Under the pieces are notes generated by a model. That model did not search any database. It saw nothing but the letters and a program-made list of their open reading frames with translations, and was not told where the DNA came from. Below are positions 2,286 through 57,717 of a stretch of 64,000 nucleotides of DNA, one piece after another (the first letter of the stretch is position 1; every line of letters begins with the position of its first letter). The stretch is from Armatimonadota bacterium (GTDB lineage: Bacteria > Armatimonadota > Fimbriimonadia > Fimbriimonadales > GBS-DC), in the NCBI GenBank assembly GCA_023511915.1, contig JAIMAN010000003.1:1049-65048 (forward strand). The letters run 5' to 3'. Position numbers and translations under genes: made by a program.

Positions 2286-3109
2286 ATGAAAACCGATCAG
2301 GAGTATCTCGAAGAATTGCTGCTGAGTCCTATGCGAGTAGTGATGGATTATCGCCCACGACTTGGGCAGATGGCTAAAGGGGGCGTATCCGCGAGCGAGT
2401 TTCAAAAATCTACAGCGCAGACCCCTTTTATCACTGGCTGGGGTTGGACGCGCCTGAAATCTACACAGCGCATCGCGTCGCGGGTGGATTAACCAGTCTG
2501 TACCGCCAGATAGGGATTGGATGCGAACGACTGGTGCGAGTGATTATTCAAGATTATCTTGAGTTGTCTACGAAAGACACACAATGGAGCTATATCGTCA
2601 CTGAGAGCGACAAGACGCGAACCATCGAGCTGGACGCGCGGGTCGAGACGGCAACGATTCCAAACCGTGAAAACCGCGAGCGTTTCCAACAGTGGCTGAG
2701 CGAGGTTGCTAACAAGCTTCAAGTAGATACGCCGCTCAAAGGCGCTGTCTTTGAGATACGGCAAGGCTACAAAAGCAAGGACTCCAAACGACAGAATGCA
2801 GACATACAGAGCGCGGCGCGCGCTTACCAGAGCAGTTATCTCCCTTGCATGCTGGTGCTATCGCAACAAATTGATAGCGACTTAGAGCGACGCTATCGAA
2901 ACGCAGGATGGCTCGTGCTTAAGGGGACAACTGAAGGCGACGCCTATCGGTCGTCCTACGCTTTTATGCGCGATGTTGTTGGCTACAACTTGCAGGGACT
3001 ATTCGAGCGTAATCAGCAGATTTTGCGCGAGCGGGTTCGAGAAGCCCTGTTGACACTCCTGCAAGTGGAGGACAAAGCGGATGGAGGCGAAACTCACTCG
3101 TCGCGCTGA
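2286..3109 (+). pseudogene. putative type II restriction endonuclease, frameshifted at an A5 run (2404-2408)
   Basis: ORFs 2286-2492 and 2444-3109 join into one reading (EFQK-IYSADPFYHWLGLDAPEIY) if one A is added; PD-(D/E)xK-like ELDAR...FEIRQGYKSKD; lower GC; overlaps the adjacent MTase. Confidence 0.65.
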
Positions 3110-4295
3110 ATACACCTTTCTGGATAACTTGAAACGGGGGCGGCATCGCTGGCTACGCTTGACCCCCGCTTACTCGGCGCGTCTGGTCGCCGAGCGTTTA
3201 CAACACTACCCTTCCTCAACGCGCGTGTTAGACCCGTTCGGAGGCACGGGCACGACTGCGCTCCTTGCAGCGCAAATGGGCTATCCTGCAACGCTGGTGG
3301 AGATTAACCCGTTCCTCGTCTGGCTGAGCCGCGCGAAGACGCGCATCTACACGCCCGACGCCATCCAATCGGCGCTGGAGTGGGGGCAAATGCTCGTACA
3401 CAAGCGGCGCGACTATACGCATGGCGCTTGCGAGCCGCCTCCCATCCGCGATATTCAGCGATGGTGGGACGCAGAGTCGCTTGCGTGGCTGACTACAATG
3501 CGCACGGCTATACACGCAACTCAAGCGACGGTCGCGCAGGCGTCAGTCGATCTCGTTTGGGTTGCCTTTGCGCAGTGCGTCATCGAGTTCTCGAACGCAT
3601 CGTATCATCACCCGTCGCTCTCGTTTCGCCAAAATCGCCAACTTGCGCTGGACATGCACAGCCACGACCAGCGGTTTCTCGAATATTTGCACGAAACCGC
3701 TCGCGATGCACACTCGAATCCGTGTTTAGAACCATGCGTGATAGAAGCCGACGCCCGCACCCTAACACCTCTGGATGGAAACACCTACGACTTGGTGATT
3801 ACCTCGCCGCCTTATGCAAACCGAATCTCGTACATTCGCGAGTTGCGCCCCTACATGTATTGGCTGGGCTTCCTCACAGATGGCGCGGAAGCGGGAGAGT
3901 TGGACTGGAGGGCAATCGGCGGCACTTGGGGCGTTGCGACCAGTCGACTGAAACTTTGGCAGCCGCAGCTGCCTATACCTGCCAGCGTTGCCGATATAGC
4001 TTCGCGTATTCGCGCGGCGCACCCAACCAACGGCGTGCTGATGGCAAACTATGTCGTGAAATACTTCGAAGACATGCGCTTGCACATTCAGCGACTGACC
4101 AAGCTTCTGGCGTCAGACGCAACAATTCACTACATCGTGGGCAACTCATCGTTCTACGGCGTGCTTGTGCCTGTAGAACAGATACTTGCAGAGTTTTTCG
4201 CCGAGCAAGGCTTTGGCAGTGTCGAAGTCGTTCCCCTTCGCAAAAGAAACTGCAAAAAGGAGTTGCGCGAGTTTGAGATTATCGGGCGACTCTAA
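3081..4295 (+). CDS. DNA amino-methyltransferase, probably N4-cytosine, alpha-type motif order
   Basis: Motif I DPFGGTGTT near the N-terminus and motif IV TSPPY downstream. Confidence 0.85.
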   Translation: MEAKLTRRAEYTFLDNLKRGRHRWLRLTPAYSARLVAERLQHYPSSTRVLDPFGGTGTTALLAAQMGYPATLVEINPFLVWLSRAKTRIYTPDAIQSALEWGQMLVHKRRDYTHGACEPPPIRDIQRWWDAESLAWLTTMRTAIHATQATVAQASVDLVWVAFAQCVIEFSNASYHHPSLSFRQNRQLALDMHSHDQRFLEYLHETARDAHSNPCLEPCVIEADARTLTPLDGNTYDLVITSPPYANRISYIRELRPYMYWLGFLTDGAEAGELDWRAIGGTWGVATSRLKLWQPQLPIPASVADIASRIRAAHPTNGVLMANYVVKYFEDMRLHIQRLTKLLASDATIHYIVGNSSFYGVLVPVEQILAEFFAEQGFGSVEVVPLRKRNCKKELREFEIIGRL

Positions 4296-19638: not shown

Positions 19639-20649
19639 TCAGTAATCCCGCAACCCCAGTAAAACTTCCAACGGAACAAAATGATGTGCCGTGCCACTCC
19701 CATCACGCTTGATGAACCCGATGCCTACCTCCCACTTGTGAAAGGTGAATTGACTATTGGATAAGCGCGACATCAAATCTGAAGGCAGCATCAGACGCGC
19801 ATCCTCTCCCAACAGCGACTGCAGCTCACCAAAGGAGTAAGAACTCCCCACTTGAGGCTGTACCTTGTCAGCGTAGAGCATTTTCCACAACTGCGCCGAA
19901 GTCTGCGGAATCGCCGTATGCATCTGGCGCTGAAGCGCAGACAGCCATTCAATATAGGCTTTGATGTGTTCCATCTGCTGGTGAGCGGGCAGCGGGTGAG
20001 AGAAGATGAAACTCCAGCGTTTCTGGCTACCGCGCTCGTGGGAAGGCGCTTTAGGCGTAGCAGATTGCCCAGACGGTCGCGGCGGCGCGAAGAGGGAGAG
20101 CAACATCGTCTGATTGGGAAAGAGGCGCTTAGACTCGGCGAATACGGCAATCTCCTCGCCGTTTTCATCTGTTGTTTTGAACCACCAGAGATCGAGGACG
20201 CCTATCAAGATTTCACCGTTCAACAGCTTCGTGTGGAGACTTTCGACAGAGGGTTCCTGAGCCACAAACAGGGCGAGCTGTGGGCGTTGAGTAGCCGACA
20301 GAATCGCTTGCTGAAGTTCAGGGGAGAGATCCTGTAAGCGACACGCCATAGCGGGTTGCTTGAGCAGAAAGTCTATGATTGGAATGGCAACTCGGTCAGC
20401 AAAGCGGGGCGTGTAGTATGCGGGGATTAGATAAGCGACATTCGTATCGCCTACGACTTCAAACCCTGCCTGGTAGCACTGCTGTATCCATTTGGAACGC
20501 TGCCAATCCTTTTCGCGCGTTTTCTCGATGAGCTGCTCTGCAGTCTTGACCTGCGATTCACTCTCACAGCCTGCCACCACAAGCGTTTGGGCGGCAGCAT
20601 GCAGAGCTATTCCCCACAGGAACCACCCTGCCAAAATTCGTGTCATCAT
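19639..20649 (-). CDS. hypothetical secreted protein (low-GC island)
   Basis: Signal peptide MMTRILAGWFLWGIALHAAA; GGAGG RBS; atypical codon use. Confidence 0.65.
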   Translation of the reverse strand: MMTRILAGWFLWGIALHAAAQTLVVAGCESESQVKTAEQLIEKTREKDWQRSKWIQQCYQAGFEVVGDTNVAYLIPAYYTPRFADRVAIPIIDFLLKQPAMACRLQDLSPELQQAILSATQRPQLALFVAQEPSVESLHTKLLNGEILIGVLDLWWFKTTDENGEEIAVFAESKRLFPNQTMLLSLFAPPRPSGQSATPKAPSHERGSQKRWSFIFSHPLPAHQQMEHIKAYIEWLSALQRQMHTAIPQTSAQLWKMLYADKVQPQVGSSYSFGELQSLLGEDARLMLPSDLMSRLSNSQFTFHKWEVGIGFIKRDGSGTAHHFVPLEVLLGLRDY

Positions 20650-20757
20650 GGTTTTAGTACCTCCGTGCCGGGCAGAACAGGTACCCACTTGGGACAACAC
20701 CCCTCTTCGGGTTGATAAGCATAGCGAAATCTATGCGATGCAGGACATAGTGTTTCT

Positions 20758-21204
20758 CTATCGATGACCACTTTCTCCTGACCTGAACAATTCAATAGGT
20801 AAGTAATGGATGATTCTCTTCCAATCTGGTTTTAAGTCAATACACTCGCAAGAAGTTTTGCATTTACCCTCCGCAAACTTAGTAGCATTGAGTGTAATCC
20901 TTCTGCCTGTACAAGTTGAATCGTTTGCTGGAACGCACACGCCGATAATACCATCGCCTGGCGCTATAGCAGCGAAGCATCCACCACCTTCCAGACACGT
21001 TGATAGCAACCTTGGACAACCACCGTATACGACGCTCGTACCCTTAATGAGCGTTGTACTCTTTGCTAGCCACACTATCTCAACACGCTCAACATCTGGT
21101 AGTGCGGGAAGCTGGCGCGTGTCATCGTTCCTGCTGCGTGGATTGGCGAAACCCACTCCGCCGATTAGCAACGCAGCGCTCGCGAACATCATCAACCGTT
21201 TCAT
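20758..21204 (-). CDS. hypothetical secreted cysteine-rich protein (8 Cys)
   Basis: Signal peptide MKRLMMFASAALLIGGVGFA; GAGGAGG RBS; C-terminal Cys-rich region. Confidence 0.65.
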   Translation of the reverse strand: MKRLMMFASAALLIGGVGFANPRSRNDDTRQLPALPDVERVEIVWLAKSTTLIKGTSVVYGGCPRLLSTCLEGGGCFAAIAPGDGIIGVCVPANDSTCTGRRITLNATKFAEGKCKTSCECIDLKPDWKRIIHYLPIELFRSGESGHR

Positions 21205-51466: not shown

Positions 51467-51501
51467 GTATAATCGACAGTGAGTGGCAGTAGGAGGTCAG
51501 C

Positions 51502-51858
51502 ATGAGGACGCTACGGGTTAGCATCTACGCTCGCGATGAATTCGTGGCAGCATTCATGAGAGAACAGGTGTCCAAGCTTGATGGGGTAAGAATCGTCTCG
51601 GGAAGTAATCACGACTCGCCCCCACCAGACGCCTCTCTTGTTGACACCGACCTACTAACACCTGGAGAGCTAAGAGTTTTATCTGTGTTTATGAAAGTAG
51701 ACTCCGTAAAACAGGCATCTAAGCGGCTCAACTTGTCTCAAAATACTGTCAGAACGCATCTCAGAAATGTCTACATCAAGCTTGGTGTGCATAGCTTGCA
51801 TCGCGCACTGTTGGTTGCACTGCGGCTCGGACTGTTGAAGGATACCACAGATGAGTGA
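51502..51858 (+). CDS. LuxR-family HTH transcriptional regulator
   Basis: LTPGELRVL...LNLSQNTVRTHLRNVYIKLGV; AGGAGG RBS. Confidence 0.88.
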   Translation: MRTLRVSIYARDEFVAAFMREQVSKLDGVRIVSGSNHDSPPPDASLVDTDLLTPGELRVLSVFMKVDSVKQASKRLNLSQNTVRTHLRNVYIKLGVHSLHRALLVALRLGLLKDTTDE

Positions 51859-51883
51859 AAAAAAAAATTCACTTATTTGGGTG

Positions 51884-51913
51884 TTGACTTGTCAGTTCGC
51901 GCTTTGGTAAACT
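51884..51913 (+). promoter_or_regulatory. sigma70-type promoter of the island operon
   Basis: TTGACT-N18-TAAACT with a TG extension. Confidence 0.55.
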
Positions 51914-51922
51914 TGGAGTGCC

Positions 51923-52471
51923 ATGCAAACATCCGCTAACACGCGCATAAGATTGCTGGGTGTGGCAGAAATCTGCTTGTGTGGCTTGCTTCTGTGGGTT
52001 GTAGCGGCAACTCCAGAATCAAGGCGCGTTTTTTCGGACGCCAAGTATCGTGCGCAATTTGTCTTCTCAGACTGGGCACACAGGGTTCGTAGCTACGCTT
52101 ACCAGCGTCGTGAGCTGCCCATAGGCTCGCGTGTGGAGGAGTTTCAGACAAGCGATACTAAGCTGGTTCGCGTCACTGCTCTTGGCATGTGTGGCAAAAG
52201 ATGTATTGATTTTATACGGAACGACACTGGAAGCGAAGCAGTGAAGCGCATCTACTTGGTAATGACCAGTGAAGACGAGGCGAAGCGGATAGAGCGACAA
52301 CTAAGCTTACCTGATGTCTCCGTCTACGCAGATTCAGAAGGTAAACTGCACAAGCGCTTGAACGCTTACTTTGTCCCGCGCTGGTTCCTGTTTGGTCCGA
52401 ATGGCGCGCTGCTGAGCAAGCAGTCTGAAGGCTCCGCGCTTGGCAACTGTGGATGTGGGGGTGTGAGATGA
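51923..52471 (+). CDS. membrane-anchored thioredoxin/redoxin-fold protein
   Basis: TM, LPIGSRV, CGKRC, YADSEGKLHKRLNAYFVPRWFLFGPNG (cis-Pro loop), C-terminal CGC. Confidence 0.6.
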   Translation: MQTSANTRIRLLGVAEICLCGLLLWVVAATPESRRVFSDAKYRAQFVFSDWAHRVRSYAYQRRELPIGSRVEEFQTSDTKLVRVTALGMCGKRCIDFIRNDTGSEAVKRIYLVMTSEDEAKRIERQLSLPDVSVYADSEGKLHKRLNAYFVPRWFLFGPNGALLSKQSEGSALGNCGCGGVR

Positions 52472-53166
52472 GGGCGCAAGGCAGGCGCAACGGCTGGACT
52501 CTTGTTGAAGTGCTGATAGTGATAGCGATCCTTATTACACTGGCGGGGATAGTATACGCTGCCTATCAGCCCATTCGTGAGCGCAGCTTGCGTGCGGTAT
52601 GCGCGTCGCGAATGCGCCAAATCTGGATTCACTTGGAGAACTATCGCCAGGACTACGGGGGAATCGACCCGCCAGCCGTCGATAAGCCCTCTCTAATCGG
52701 GCTTCCCGCTGACTATAATCAGCGACGACTTTTCGAAGCAAGTTATGACCGTATCTTCCCCGATGGCTGGACCTGCCCCACAGGAAGACCCATGCAGCCA
52801 CACACATATACTTCCGAGTTTTGCAACTCACACCCATGTTGGCGAAACGGTGGGGTAGCTCACTGTGTCTACCCGCACTGCGCCTTCTACAGGTTATGGT
52901 ACTTTCACGAGGGATTTTACAGACCAGATGAGCATCCAGGAGTTGTGGCGGCTGTCAATTGTGAGCGGCTACTGTATCGAAGTCTGGGAATGCAGTACCC
53001 AATCATTATGGACACCTGCCATCGCGAAGTTTTGGATGCGTGGTTCAACAATTTCACGATGATGGTGCATCTCGATGGTAGCTTCTCCGCAAGGGTCATT
53101 CCGGACACAGCAGCCTACAGAACCAACTTATGCGAACTCTTTCGCAGTGGAGGTGAACAGCGATGA
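52468..53166 (+). CDS. prepilin-type N-terminal cleavage/methylation domain protein
   Basis: G/WTLVEVLIVIAILITLAGI, CASRMRQI, C-terminal H...LDG; ATGA coupling. Confidence 0.85.
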   Translation: MRAQGRRNGWTLVEVLIVIAILITLAGIVYAAYQPIRERSLRAVCASRMRQIWIHLENYRQDYGGIDPPAVDKPSLIGLPADYNQRRLFEASYDRIFPDGWTCPTGRPMQPHTYTSEFCNSHPCWRNGGVAHCVYPHCAFYRLWYFHEGFYRPDEHPGVVAAVNCERLLYRSLGMQYPIIMDTCHREVLDAWFNNFTMMVHLDGSFSARVIPDTAAYRTNLCELFRSGGEQR

Positions 53167-53578
53167 GAACAACACTGAGGCGTTTGAAGATGCTTATGGC
53201 GATTACGTTTGGACTTTCGGCTGCCTACTTCGTGTTTGCCGAGATAAGCCCTGCTGGAGGTCCCACTTGTGGTCTGTTCTGCAACGGTCAGCGAGCTTGC
53301 AACGCAACCTGTCCGCCGGGGTGCAGTCCAAGGCAGGATGGTGACGCCTTCGATTGCTGCTGCACATTACAGCTTTCTGGCGATCCCATAGATACTGTTG
53401 CAGCGGACAGTGCTGGCGCGCCGAATGTAAGGACGCGCGTGGTAATCTCTGTTCTCGGCCTGTTGAGCGGTTCGTTTGCGGGCAGGGCGCCCTTGTTTCT
53501 AACTACCACAGGTGCGAGAATAATTATTGCGTCGGACCTGCTCCTTGGCCGCCCGAAAACCCAGTTCCTCAGCCATGA
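53163..53578 (+). CDS. secreted cysteine-rich protein, apparently frameshifted near 53385-53390 (138 aa, 16 Cys when repaired)
   Basis: Signal peptide plus 8 Cys in the first frame; 8 more Cys in the -1 frame, which ends in a TGA overlapping the next ATG. Confidence 0.65.
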
Positions 53579-54279
53579 GAATCGCGAAAGATCGTAAAAT
53601 ATTGCTATCACTTGTGATGTTTACCTTAGGGGCGCTGCTCTATTGGTGGTTCACGCGCCCTCCTTCTCCAGAAACGGTAGCGCGCTGGACGATGGAGGCT
53701 ATCGTCCAGCGCGATGCACGCCGCCTATGCCAGCTGATGTGTGATATGGAGCGCCAGTATGTCTCGGAAGAGAACCTCAAGCGCGTGTTAGAACAGATGC
53801 ATAAGGAACTACCTTACCTTACCTCTATAAGCCTGCATGATTACCCATATGATGTAACGAGAGACGATGTGCGCAGGCTAAGGCGAGCAGGATTTAGATT
53901 TACCCCAGCAGTTCACGATGTCCGCTTTTGCTATCGTTTCGTTCACGGTCAGCTGGTACCCATACCTCCGAACGAGCACCCCGCCTTTGCAGAACGGTAT
54001 CTACTCGATTCTTCTACGATAGAGCAGGGGCGTTGTTTCTGCGTACATGTCAACCTCCACAGCGGCTACGAAAAGCGTTGCCCGCTTGTGGTAAAAACTC
54101 TTGTGCGAATAGTCATAGAATCACGCGCTGCCAAGGGCAACATGGAGCAGCTGCTGGAAAGAATTTTTTGGAACAACGGTGTCCGAGTCGCTTTCTATGA
54201 TCCGAACACGGGTCGCATCCAGCGAATTCAACTGATGAAGGCGACCAGTGCAGACGGCAAAGTCAGGTATTACTGGTAG
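53575..54279 (+). CDS. hypothetical membrane-anchored protein
   Basis: N-terminal TM then PSPETVARWTMEAI (NTF2/DUF4878-like start). Confidence 0.65.
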   Translation: MRIAKDRKILLSLVMFTLGALLYWWFTRPPSPETVARWTMEAIVQRDARRLCQLMCDMERQYVSEENLKRVLEQMHKELPYLTSISLHDYPYDVTRDDVRRLRRAGFRFTPAVHDVRFCYRFVHGQLVPIPPNEHPAFAERYLLDSSTIEQGRCFCVHVNLHSGYEKRCPLVVKTLVRIVIESRAAKGNMEQLLERIFWNNGVRVAFYDPNTGRIQRIQLMKATSADGKVRYYW

Positions 54280-54283
54280 TGCC

Positions 54284-56490: not shown

Positions 56491-57717
56491 TCAGGGTTTT
56501 CGCGCCGCGCCGCTGGTGCGGATTGTGCCTGCGGGCGCGACGGGGAGCGTCCATGCCGCCAGCGCGAGCGCAATCACCAGGTCGTCGTGGACGCCCGACG
56601 CGCCCTCCAGTCGCACGCCGCGCGCGGTCGGCGTCGCCTCAAAGTGGTACAACTCGCGCAGCAGGTCATGGTCGGGCAGCAGTTGCAGGCGTTCCTGTTC
56701 CAGCATCAGCGCGAGGTTCTCGATAAGGCTCTGCTTGAGCGTCTGGGTGAAGGCGACGCCTTCGGCATAGGGGAACTCGCGCTGCAGGCTCTCCAGCAGG
56801 GGGTCGCCGACGCCTGTGCGGTCGCAGAGGATTCGCGCGGGGGCGTGCTGGCGCAACTGCGCTGCGACCGCGCTGACCTGCTCCGCCCACGACAGCCCCT
56901 GCCAGCGGCGGACGGCGAGCAGTTTCGCGCCGTCCCGCGCGCCCTGCAGCACTGCCAGCGCCGTGTAGTCGCGATAGCGCGCCCAGTCCACCCCCGCCAC
57001 AACCAGCCCCGCGTCGGGCAGCCGCAACAGCAGCGCGCGATCCACCCACTCTGTGCGGAACACCTGCCCCTCCGCGTCCAGGAACGCCGCGCCGTACTCG
57101 ATCTGATACTGGCGCTGGGTCATCATGCTGGCTTGCATCTGCAGCACGGTGGGCGAGAGCAGCGGGTTGTGCCACGAGGGGCTGCGCAGGCTCCAGACGC
57201 GGATGCCGTCCTCTTGCCCCTGCAGGTAGTAGCGGTAGAAGTAGTTTTTGCCGCGCGGGGTGGAAATCAGCGCGAGTCGTCCGCCCGTGTCGGCGAGCAT
57301 CGGGGTCAGCACTTCGGCGACGACCGCTTCGGGCACATAAGCCGCCTCGTCGACGACAATCAGGTGCGCCTTGCGCCCGCGTAGGAACATCCCGCCCCGC
57401 GCGGCGGCGCGCGCCCACAGCCGCGCGTCGCCCAGCGCGAGCGTCGGCGCAGGCGTGCGCCGTACCGTCGGACGCGCCCCCGCACGGTGCAGAAACTCCA
57501 GCGCACGCTCGAACCCCAGCATCGCCTGCTCCTGCGACGGCGCGACCAGCAGCACTTGGCGCGGCGCGCCCGTAAGCAGCGCGCGGGCAATCTCCGCCGC
57601 GATGACCTCCGTCTTGCCCCACCGCCTGCCGCACGCCAGCACGCGCACAGGCGCACGACTGCTCAAAAACGCCTGCTGCCCCAGATGCGGACGCCACCCA
57701 GAAAACACGGCAATCAC
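56491..57717 (-). CDS. phage terminase large subunit-like protein (orphan)
   Basis: Walker A GRRWGKT, Walker B LIVVDEAAY, coupling motif ISTPRG, RNase H-like GVDWA..D, DRTGVG, HDDLVIALALA. Confidence 0.9.
   Translation of the reverse strand: MIAVFSGWRPHLGQQAFLSSRAPVRVLACGRRWGKTEVIAAEIARALLTGAPRQVLLVAPSQEQAMLGFERALEFLHRAGARPTVRRTPAPTLALGDARLWARAAARGGMFLRGRKAHLIVVDEAAYVPEAVVAEVLTPMLADTGGRLALISTPRGKNYFYRYYLQGQEDGIRVWSLRSPSWHNPLLSPTVLQMQASMMTQRQYQIEYGAAFLDAEGQVFRTEWVDRALLLRLPDAGLVVAGVDWARYRDYTALAVLQGARDGAKLLAVRRWQGLSWAEQVSAVAAQLRQHAPARILCDRTGVGDPLLESLQREFPYAEGVAFTQTLKQSLIENLALMLEQERLQLLPDHDLLRELYHFEATPTARGVRLEGASGVHDDLVIALALAAWTLPVAPAGTIRTSGAARKP

Follow-up and report, generated by a model that had tools for sequence, protein, structure and literature searches.

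The subject of this analysis is an accessory gene cassette in a 64,000-nucleotide stretch of DNA from an Armatimonadota bacterium (GenBank assembly GCA_023511915.1, contig JAIMAN010000003.1, positions 1,049 to 65,048 of the forward strand). The whole stretch is referred to as the window; compared regions are labeled L, genomes G (G000 being the own genome), and runs with contigs X. The insert covers positions 51467-54283 and sits between a gene for a 517-residue polytopic membrane protein and an AAA ATPase gene. These flanking genes are contiguous without it in G010, G012, and one contig of run X15, which identifies the cassette as an accessory insert. On the forward strand it carries luxR (51502-51858), a redoxin gene (51923-52471), a type IV prepilin-like gene (52468-53166), a gene for a cysteine-rich (Cys) secreted protein (53163-53578), and a gene for a single-pass membrane protein (53575-54279). 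The last four are translationally coupled through ATGA overlaps at 52468, 53163, and 53575, as a preliminary description of the locus had reported. Its remark on the low G+C content of the cassette also holds, with the individual genes at 0.49-0.56 and the genome at 0.64, and a single N-terminal hydrophobic segment is predicted in all four products, in line with the export or membrane anchoring ascribed to them.

The cassette is a real, recurring accessory module across the phylum. Homologue searches with a single redoxin or membrane protein returned only close relatives (2 and 4 proteins), and profiles were needed. Among 301 genomes of the phylum, the own genome included, the redoxin profile matches in 49 and the membrane-gene profile in 20. 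For closer inspection, 40 regions were fetched, which represent 41 of the 78 redoxin matches outside the own genome and were picked from the better E-values and longer contigs. A prepilin lies next to the redoxin in 31 of these 40 regions, and 28 contain the series of redoxin, prepilin, and a signal-peptide open reading frame (ORF) with 8-18 Cys. The membrane gene is additionally present in 17; the profile behind this count was enlarged with matches from the same regions, and the independent test consists of the genome-wide matches obtained without neighbor information. Of 22 such matches outside the own genome, 13 have a pilin and 11 have a pilin together with a Cys gene in the preceding 900 bases. 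An order-level search returned 25 loci, six of which overlap the earlier sets. After the own locus and one unpublished genome were left out, 12 of 23 loci show the order pilin-Cys-membrane, and in 4 of 23 the membrane gene follows the pilin directly, the latter judged from coordinates. The membrane gene is a regular fourth member of the cassette. One genus is over-represented in these recurrence counts, which are not independent.

Co-occurrence in many genomes of the phylum, established by this profile-based neighborhood check, confirms that the genes form a dedicated module. It apparently belongs to type IV filaments and has apparently gone undescribed so far; a literature search, whose reach did not extend to subscription papers and supplements, found no published description. 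Within the own genome, a Cys-rich ORF stands behind 2 of 37 ORFs with a prepilin motif, and both have a redoxin in front. One is the window cassette. The other (L030:959-3235, equivalent to G000:C7:25958-28234) encodes an ECF-like (extracytoplasmic function) sigma factor, a redoxin with one active-site Cys, a prepilin, and a 14-Cys exported protein; this C7 cassette has no membrane gene, and relatives of it occur in G002, G005, G007, and G022. Tandem arrays are found in L092, L097, L106, L115, L121, and L176, where pilin-Cys or pilin-Cys-membrane units are repeated and two to three membrane genes stand in a row. The order is rearranged in L100, L110, and L116, giving redoxin-Cys-membrane-pilin and Cys-pilin-redoxin.

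The Cys gene is frameshifted in the window. Where a 16-Cys protein had been described, the ORF from 53163 encodes 144 residues including 8 Cys and continues in the wrong frame as far as 53597, and the remaining 8 Cys are encoded in a second frame ending at 53578. Comparison with relatives gives an intact product of 138 residues with 16 Cys for this gene, and intact ORFs of 136-138 residues with 16 Cys are present in L016, L017, L018, and L022. The window is one base shorter at 53389-53390 than L016 and the contigs of runs X6 and X7. Of the runs that match the window almost completely, X7 reads through the site with one extra base at a depth of 3, and X6 carries the extra base as a loose end. 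The X8 contig agrees with the window form but begins 7 bases before the site, too few for bridging, and the X5 contig begins 4 bases before it. The frameshift may be a variant within the population or an error of the source assembly; for assembly error as the sole cause, the evidence considered is the extra base in X7 and X6 and the agreement of X8 over 7 bases only.

Two further types of loss affect the same gene in close strains. Positions 53363-53539 are deleted in X1 and X2, which come from one study, and only a 36-residue leader is left in L019-L021 and X10, with both ATGA junctions retained in L019-L021. In L019 and L021, neither the pilin gene nor the membrane gene is damaged. The Cys gene is also absent in two other species, G007 having the arrangement redoxin-pilin-membrane and G024 pilin-membrane alone. 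The stable pair in this lineage is the pilin and the membrane protein, and the Cys gene has been lost repeatedly. Among partner proteins of the family, the Cys count is even in 23 of 28 (p 5e-4, for proteins that are kin and not independent). Kinship among the cassette Cys proteins did not emerge from a profile of the four intact alleles, which barely picked up the Cys proteins of other cassettes (a best score of 10.7 bits in a set of 35, compared with 8.1 in 700 shuffled sequences), and the ESM Atlas returned no usable match for the Cys protein.

The prepilin-like protein has 232 residues and falls in a DUF1559-related branch. The earlier assignment as a Cys-containing prepilin is supported by a prepilin motif and 9 Cys. 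The class III signal of the window copy reads RRNG|WTLVE, with a basic leader, a glycine before the hydrophobic helix, and Glu at +5, and both the cleavage motif and Glu5 are conserved among family pilins. The N_methyl family (PF07963) scores 20.8 bits for the window copy, just below the cut-off of 21.2, and is matched by 31 of 33 aligned family members. At an E-value of 0.01 or lower, DUF1559 (PF07596) is matched by 16 of the 33 relatives and not by the window copy. The NCBIfam model TIGR04294, which we take to be the C-terminal H-X9-DG domain, is unmatched by the window copy and its 33 relatives, in which a longer H...DG spacing is seen by eye. GspG gives a weak match in 32 of 33 family members at E 0.01 or better, in all cases below the cut-off.

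A structural model of the L016 allele (predicted local distance difference test, pLDDT, 85) shows a long helix near the N-terminus (residues 12-62) that packs against a head of antiparallel beta-strands, with strands within 178-210 and three short core strands. Its top 11 structural matches are all pilins, headed by ComP (Z 6.2, root-mean-square deviation 3.9, 101 residues aligned) and including PilA4 (Z 5.2), PilV (5.0), and PilX (4.7), with EpsG in seventh place (Z 4.1). By this model, the protein is closest to type IV pilins. The 32 solitary pilin paralogues of the own genome group in a clade of their own (FastTree support 97) and have no Cys-rich neighbors. The host encodes one prepilin peptidase, four PilB/GspE-sized ATPases, and two secretins, all on contigs other than that of the cassette. 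It was also considered whether extra Cys in a pilin clade replace the partner. This idea is unsupported, as two pilins that stand directly before a membrane gene have 3 and 4 Cys (counted in the stop-to-stop frame), and Cys-rich pilins that do have partners counter it as well.

The membrane protein has 234 residues, and its single transmembrane helix at residues 3-27 agrees with the single-span partner first proposed. The model of the L016 allele (pLDDT 87, predicted template modeling score 0.82) consists of one helix and an alpha/beta domain, with a cytoplasmic tail of a few residues. Nearly all of the 50 structural matches listed are NTF2-like, at modest Z (best 6.5, root-mean-square deviation 3.4, 99 residues aligned), and the family profile matches a de novo designed NTF2 at E 1e-4 and also the N-domain of PBP5. 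The protein is accordingly predicted from its model to carry a periplasmic NTF2-like domain. None of the 34 family members matches a Pfam family, a Foldseek search with the model gave nothing at E 0.001 or better, and the ESM Atlas gave only matches under 0.9. In L023, positions 696-863 of the region hold a 168-base insert within the membrane gene that has short inverted ends and a TA duplication and resembles a miniature inverted-repeat transposable element. One further profile match, a 215-residue membrane protein directly behind a solitary DUF1559-type pilin (L187:1784-2431, in G000:C89; E 1e-5, a weak match), was considered as a cassette membrane gene; it looks like a different housekeeping gene and was left out of the counts.

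The redoxin (182 residues) is predicted to be membrane-anchored through a hydrophobic segment from residue 8. Both its CGKRC motif and its terminal CGC are present as described. The thioredoxin fold attributed to it is supported at the level of the family, in which AhpC-TSA is matched by 5 and Redoxin by 4 of 17 members, while the window copy alone has no Pfam match. The family profile also matches ResA weakly (E 0.025), and by these profiles and the alignment the family is TlpA/ResA-like. The window copy has CxxxC at its active site where most relatives have CxxC, a motif found in 28 of 44 family rows in the alignment (27 scored, and L096 read by eye) and absent in 16. A C-terminal tail with at least two Cys occurs in none of the 28 CxxC rows and in 6 of the 16 rows without CxxC, the window copy included. 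The significance of this exclusion (Fisher p 0.001) is overstated since the rows are kin, and the Cys-tail redoxins are scattered over two or three positions of a tree with poor resolution. The TlpA/ResA class reduces or isomerizes disulfides rather than oxidizing them. Because the family is TlpA/ResA-like, reduction or isomerization by the cassette redoxin is more likely than oxidation, and the oxidative folding first suggested for it is not upheld. Selenocysteine was considered for the redoxins of G260 and G231, where the in-frame stops miss the active site and are read as nonsense changes. A frameshift proposed for the G007 redoxin was dropped, the other frame having given only a non-significant N-terminal match.

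At the 5' end of the insert, luxR is preceded by a TATAAT-like -10 box and an AGGAGG ribosome-binding site (51468-51496, forward strand), seen in the sequence and nearly invariant in four strains. The gene encodes a LuxR/GerE-type helix-turn-helix regulator of 118 residues with a short N-terminal remnant, and its match to GerE (PF00196, E 5e-12) bears out the neighboring LuxR regulator noted earlier. An A-tract and a sigma-70-like promoter for the four-gene operon follow (51858-51913, forward strand). The proposal of one promoter stands in part: there is a single sigma-70-like site at 51884-51913, whose -10 box is kept together with the preceding A-tract in six relatives (five strains and G008, another species), but the number of such sites is not above chance (1 observed against 1.7 expected per shuffle). 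The A-tract proper (51858-51867) has 10 A in the window and 9-12 in aligned relatives, and differs by 1-2 bases in X1 and X15; such length variation could tune operon expression. A LuxR of the same type lies directly 5' of the redoxin in G008 and in 6 of the 40 other regions, an ECF-like sigma factor does so in 5, and neither is found directly upstream in 29, where 5 of the 40 have fewer than 700 bases of upstream sequence. Contigs of the RNA run X15 span the cassette, and such contigs may stem from DNA.

Allelic variation is distributed unevenly over the cassette. Expressed as nonsynonymous (pN) and synonymous (pS) differences, mean pN/pS is below 1 for each cassette gene, one near-identical pair being the exception. 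Two types of Cys allele differ at pS 0.52-0.57 and pN 0.18-0.19, against a pS of up to 0.19 for the redoxin, and the leaders of the two types are identical at the protein level. L017 and L018 have identical luxR and redoxin genes and a common Cys allele and differ in the membrane gene (pS 0.23), whereas L016 and L017 have a common membrane type and different Cys alleles. These combinations indicate that Cys and membrane alleles have been exchanged separately. Cys alleles that are 72% identical are paired with pilins that are 93% identical. The most variable part of the membrane protein is its middle (pN 0.16 against 0.03 at the N-terminus). Region L023 holds the 3' portion of a Cys allele that looks undamaged, adjoining an interrupted membrane gene.

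In our reading, the cassette would supply a pilus or secretion filament of the host with an interchangeable, non-core minor pilin that is predicted to bear a disulfide-rich miniprotein, a proposal that we hold with belief and doubt in about equal parts. We favor it because of the recurrence of the module, the predicted pilin fold, the host machinery, the even Cys counts, the persistence of pilin and membrane gene without the Cys gene (L019-L021, G007, and G024), the pN/pS values below 1, and the divergent Cys alleles. We infer a course in which LuxR would control the promoter at 51884-51913 and the host prepilin peptidase would cleave the pilin. The miniprotein would cross the membrane via Sec, and the redoxin would correct the disulfides of miniprotein and pilin, here probably aided by the C-terminal CGC arm. 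The membrane protein may hold or prime its own pilin in the inner membrane, in a TfpY-like manner. The miniprotein would then ride the pilin to the surface, as TcpF on TcpB, and be exposed there to phage or other selection. Such exposure would account for the old divergent Cys alleles, the exchange of alleles, and the repeated loss of the gene.

Several results weigh against this proposal. The pN/pS values of the cassette genes, compared within the lineage, give no sign of positive selection. Foldseek found no match to the pilin model at E 0.001 or better, and the best fold Z-scores of both the pilin and the membrane-protein models are below 8. No membrane gene is seen in 11 of the 28 three-gene regions, and at least about 3 kb of sequence lies downstream in 7 of these 11. 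Where the Cys gene has been lost from an otherwise retained cassette, the pilin persists; it can do without that gene, which weakens the view that carrying the miniprotein is what the pilin is for in this lineage. Other cassette genes decay as well, with a broken redoxin in G008, G231, and G260 and an insert interrupting the membrane gene of L023, so part of the Cys-gene loss may be plain drift.

Other explanations assign the same genes different roles. The pilin could be a periplasmic pseudopilus adaptor for type II secretion, which would select the miniprotein for release to the medium with no display. The weak GspG scores of 32 of 33 family members, all under the cut-off, point in this direction, as do the short sheet in the head of the model and the four PilB/GspE-sized ATPases and two secretins of the host. 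We nevertheless regard such an adaptor as unlikely, for the nearest folds are minor pilins of pili and not pseudopilins, with EpsG ranking seventh at Z 4.1, and the pilin is retained without its Cys substrate in L019-L021, G007, and G024. It is improbable that the miniprotein is instead a structural half that completes a small pilin head, as PilA-C does for Geobacter PilA-N. An exported partner directly after the pilin gene in 28 of 40 regions and a model with only three short core strands would fit a two-chain pilin, but the 232-residue pilin folds confidently alone (pLDDT 85), stays intact where the partner is deleted, and shows no fixed pairing with Cys alleles (72% identical Cys alleles with 93% identical pilins).

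The preliminary description had cast the last gene as a receptor or immunity factor. On those terms, the miniprotein would act on other bacteria as an effector, with the membrane protein conferring immunity to it or serving as its receptor, and strains that have dropped the effector would be cheaters. Several features are compatible with such a pair: the putative effector gene comes first and the membrane-protein gene second, strains without the Cys gene retain the membrane gene, and the middle of the membrane protein is its most variable part (pN 0.16 against 0.03 at the N-terminus). In addition, one solved immunity protein, Tai3, has an NTF2-like fold (Z 4.6, rank 36). Matching alleles of such a pair would, however, be expected to travel as a unit, and the effector gene would never stand without its immunity gene. 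The free reassortment of Cys and membrane alleles among L016, L017, and L018 argues against it. So do the L023 Cys allele, undamaged-looking over its 3' part, beside an interrupted membrane gene, and the many cassettes, the C7 cassette of the own genome included, in which a Cys gene has no membrane gene; where the Cys gene is missing, the membrane gene is still found with the pilin. The last gene thus does not behave like a cognate immunity factor or receptor, and an effector-immunity pair is improbable on this evidence. Finally, the pilin-like protein, the membrane protein, and the miniprotein might remain together in an inner-membrane complex outside any filament and relay signals to the LuxR or ECF-like regulator encoded next to them. 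One of these regulators lies directly upstream in some regions (LuxR in 6 of 40, ECF-like sigma in 5 of 40), and the anti-sigma factor RsgI9 contains an NTF2-like domain (Z 6.2). Given that 29 of 40 regions have neither regulator directly upstream, that the cytoplasmic tail of the membrane protein is only a few residues long, and that the cleavage motif and Glu5 are conserved in the pilin, we consider such an envelope sensor very improbable.

The minor-pilin proposal invites comparison with known systems. In the passages on them in PMC10120004, TcpB-TcpF of Vibrio cholerae and CofB-CofJ of enterotoxigenic Escherichia coli combine a type IVb minor pilin with an exoprotein that binds it by way of an N-terminal export signal, with export by the pilus as the working model. 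As in these pairs, a pilin-like gene in the cassette adjoins a gene for a Sec-exported protein, here by prediction. The cassette partner, however, is a disulfide-rich miniprotein of 100-160 residues, and theirs is a large colonization factor. The cassette pilin is small and DUF1559-related, with IVa non-core minor pilins as its nearest folds. The cassette brings along a redoxin and is present in several variable copies in a genome, and it contains no assembly genes and has unrelated flanks, whereas the known pairs lie inside a type IVb pilus operon. For the membrane protein, the closest parallel is offered by TfpY, TfpZ, and FimB of Pseudomonas aeruginosa and others, which are presented as pilin accessory proteins in the sections of PMC11841053 that concern them, TfpY with three N-terminal membrane helices. 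TfpY resembles the cassette protein as an inner-membrane protein of about 235 residues that is encoded downstream of a pilin and travels with the pilin lineage. It differs in its three helices and another periplasmic fold; the cassette protein has one helix, a predicted NTF2-like domain, and no Pfam match.

Among pilins, the non-core minor pilins ComP, PilV, and PilX of Neisseria are the best structural matches (Z 6.2, 5.0, and 4.7), but the cassette pilin has a larger head with a Cys-rich insertion and is encoded with partner, accessory, and redoxin genes. It has the N-terminal methylation motif in common with DUF1559/H-X9-DG prepilins, and 16 of 33 cassette pilins match PF07596; it departs from them in that none of the 33 matches TIGR04294 and that the solitary paralogues of the own genome fall in a separate clade. 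The heterodimeric pilin PilA-N/PilA-C of Geobacter, in which PilA-N has 61 residues according to the relevant part of PMC11046646, is similar in that a candidate gene for a small second chain follows the pilin gene. The cassette pilin, with 232 residues, folds alone in the model and persists without its partner. The redoxin shares with TlpA, ResA, and StoA an N-terminal anchor, thioredoxin-fold profile matches, and a conserved proline before the last strands, and is set apart by the CxxxC site and C-terminal CGC tail of the window copy and by the absence of CxxC in 16 of 44 family rows.

New at this locus are the fourth member with its predicted NTF2-like fold, the naturally occurring alleles in which the Cys gene is lost, the findings that speak against an immunity role, and the tail pattern of the redoxin, whose family shows an unusual exchange between active site and tail. 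Genomes of these phyla contain dozens of pilin-like paralogues (37 motif matches here), which constitute a puzzle, and the cassette gives one branch of them named partners. Near-identical strains with intact, frameshifted, half-deleted, and fully deleted Cys genes on one background amount to natural knock-outs in which partner function is directly testable. The cassettes are also a large untapped source of disulfide-rich miniproteins from thermophiles. A bolder version of the proposal, which we regard as doubtful, would make the module a phylum-wide plug-in for type IV filaments, with a matched pilin, an NTF2-like primer, a disulfide-rich miniprotein tip exchanged by recombination in populations and discarded under phage pressure, and redoxin chemistry that moved more than once from CxxC to a flexible C-terminal Cys arm. 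If true, it would amount to a new route to surface variation and to the first mechanism for a branch of DUF1559-like pilins.

Elsewhere in the window, a second low-G+C gene pair on the reverse strand encodes a 148-residue signal-peptide protein with about 8 Cys (20758-21204) followed by a 353-residue exported-looking protein (19639-20700); no prepilin or redoxin was seen alongside this pair, which spans 19639-21204. Another low-G+C pair at 2534-4295 on the forward strand resembles, by eye, a restriction endonuclease and a DNA methyltransferase. The ORF at 56491-57717 on the reverse strand (408 residues) adjoins an RNase HII-like gene and, by eye, resembles the large subunit of a phage terminase; no further phage genes were noticed in its vicinity.

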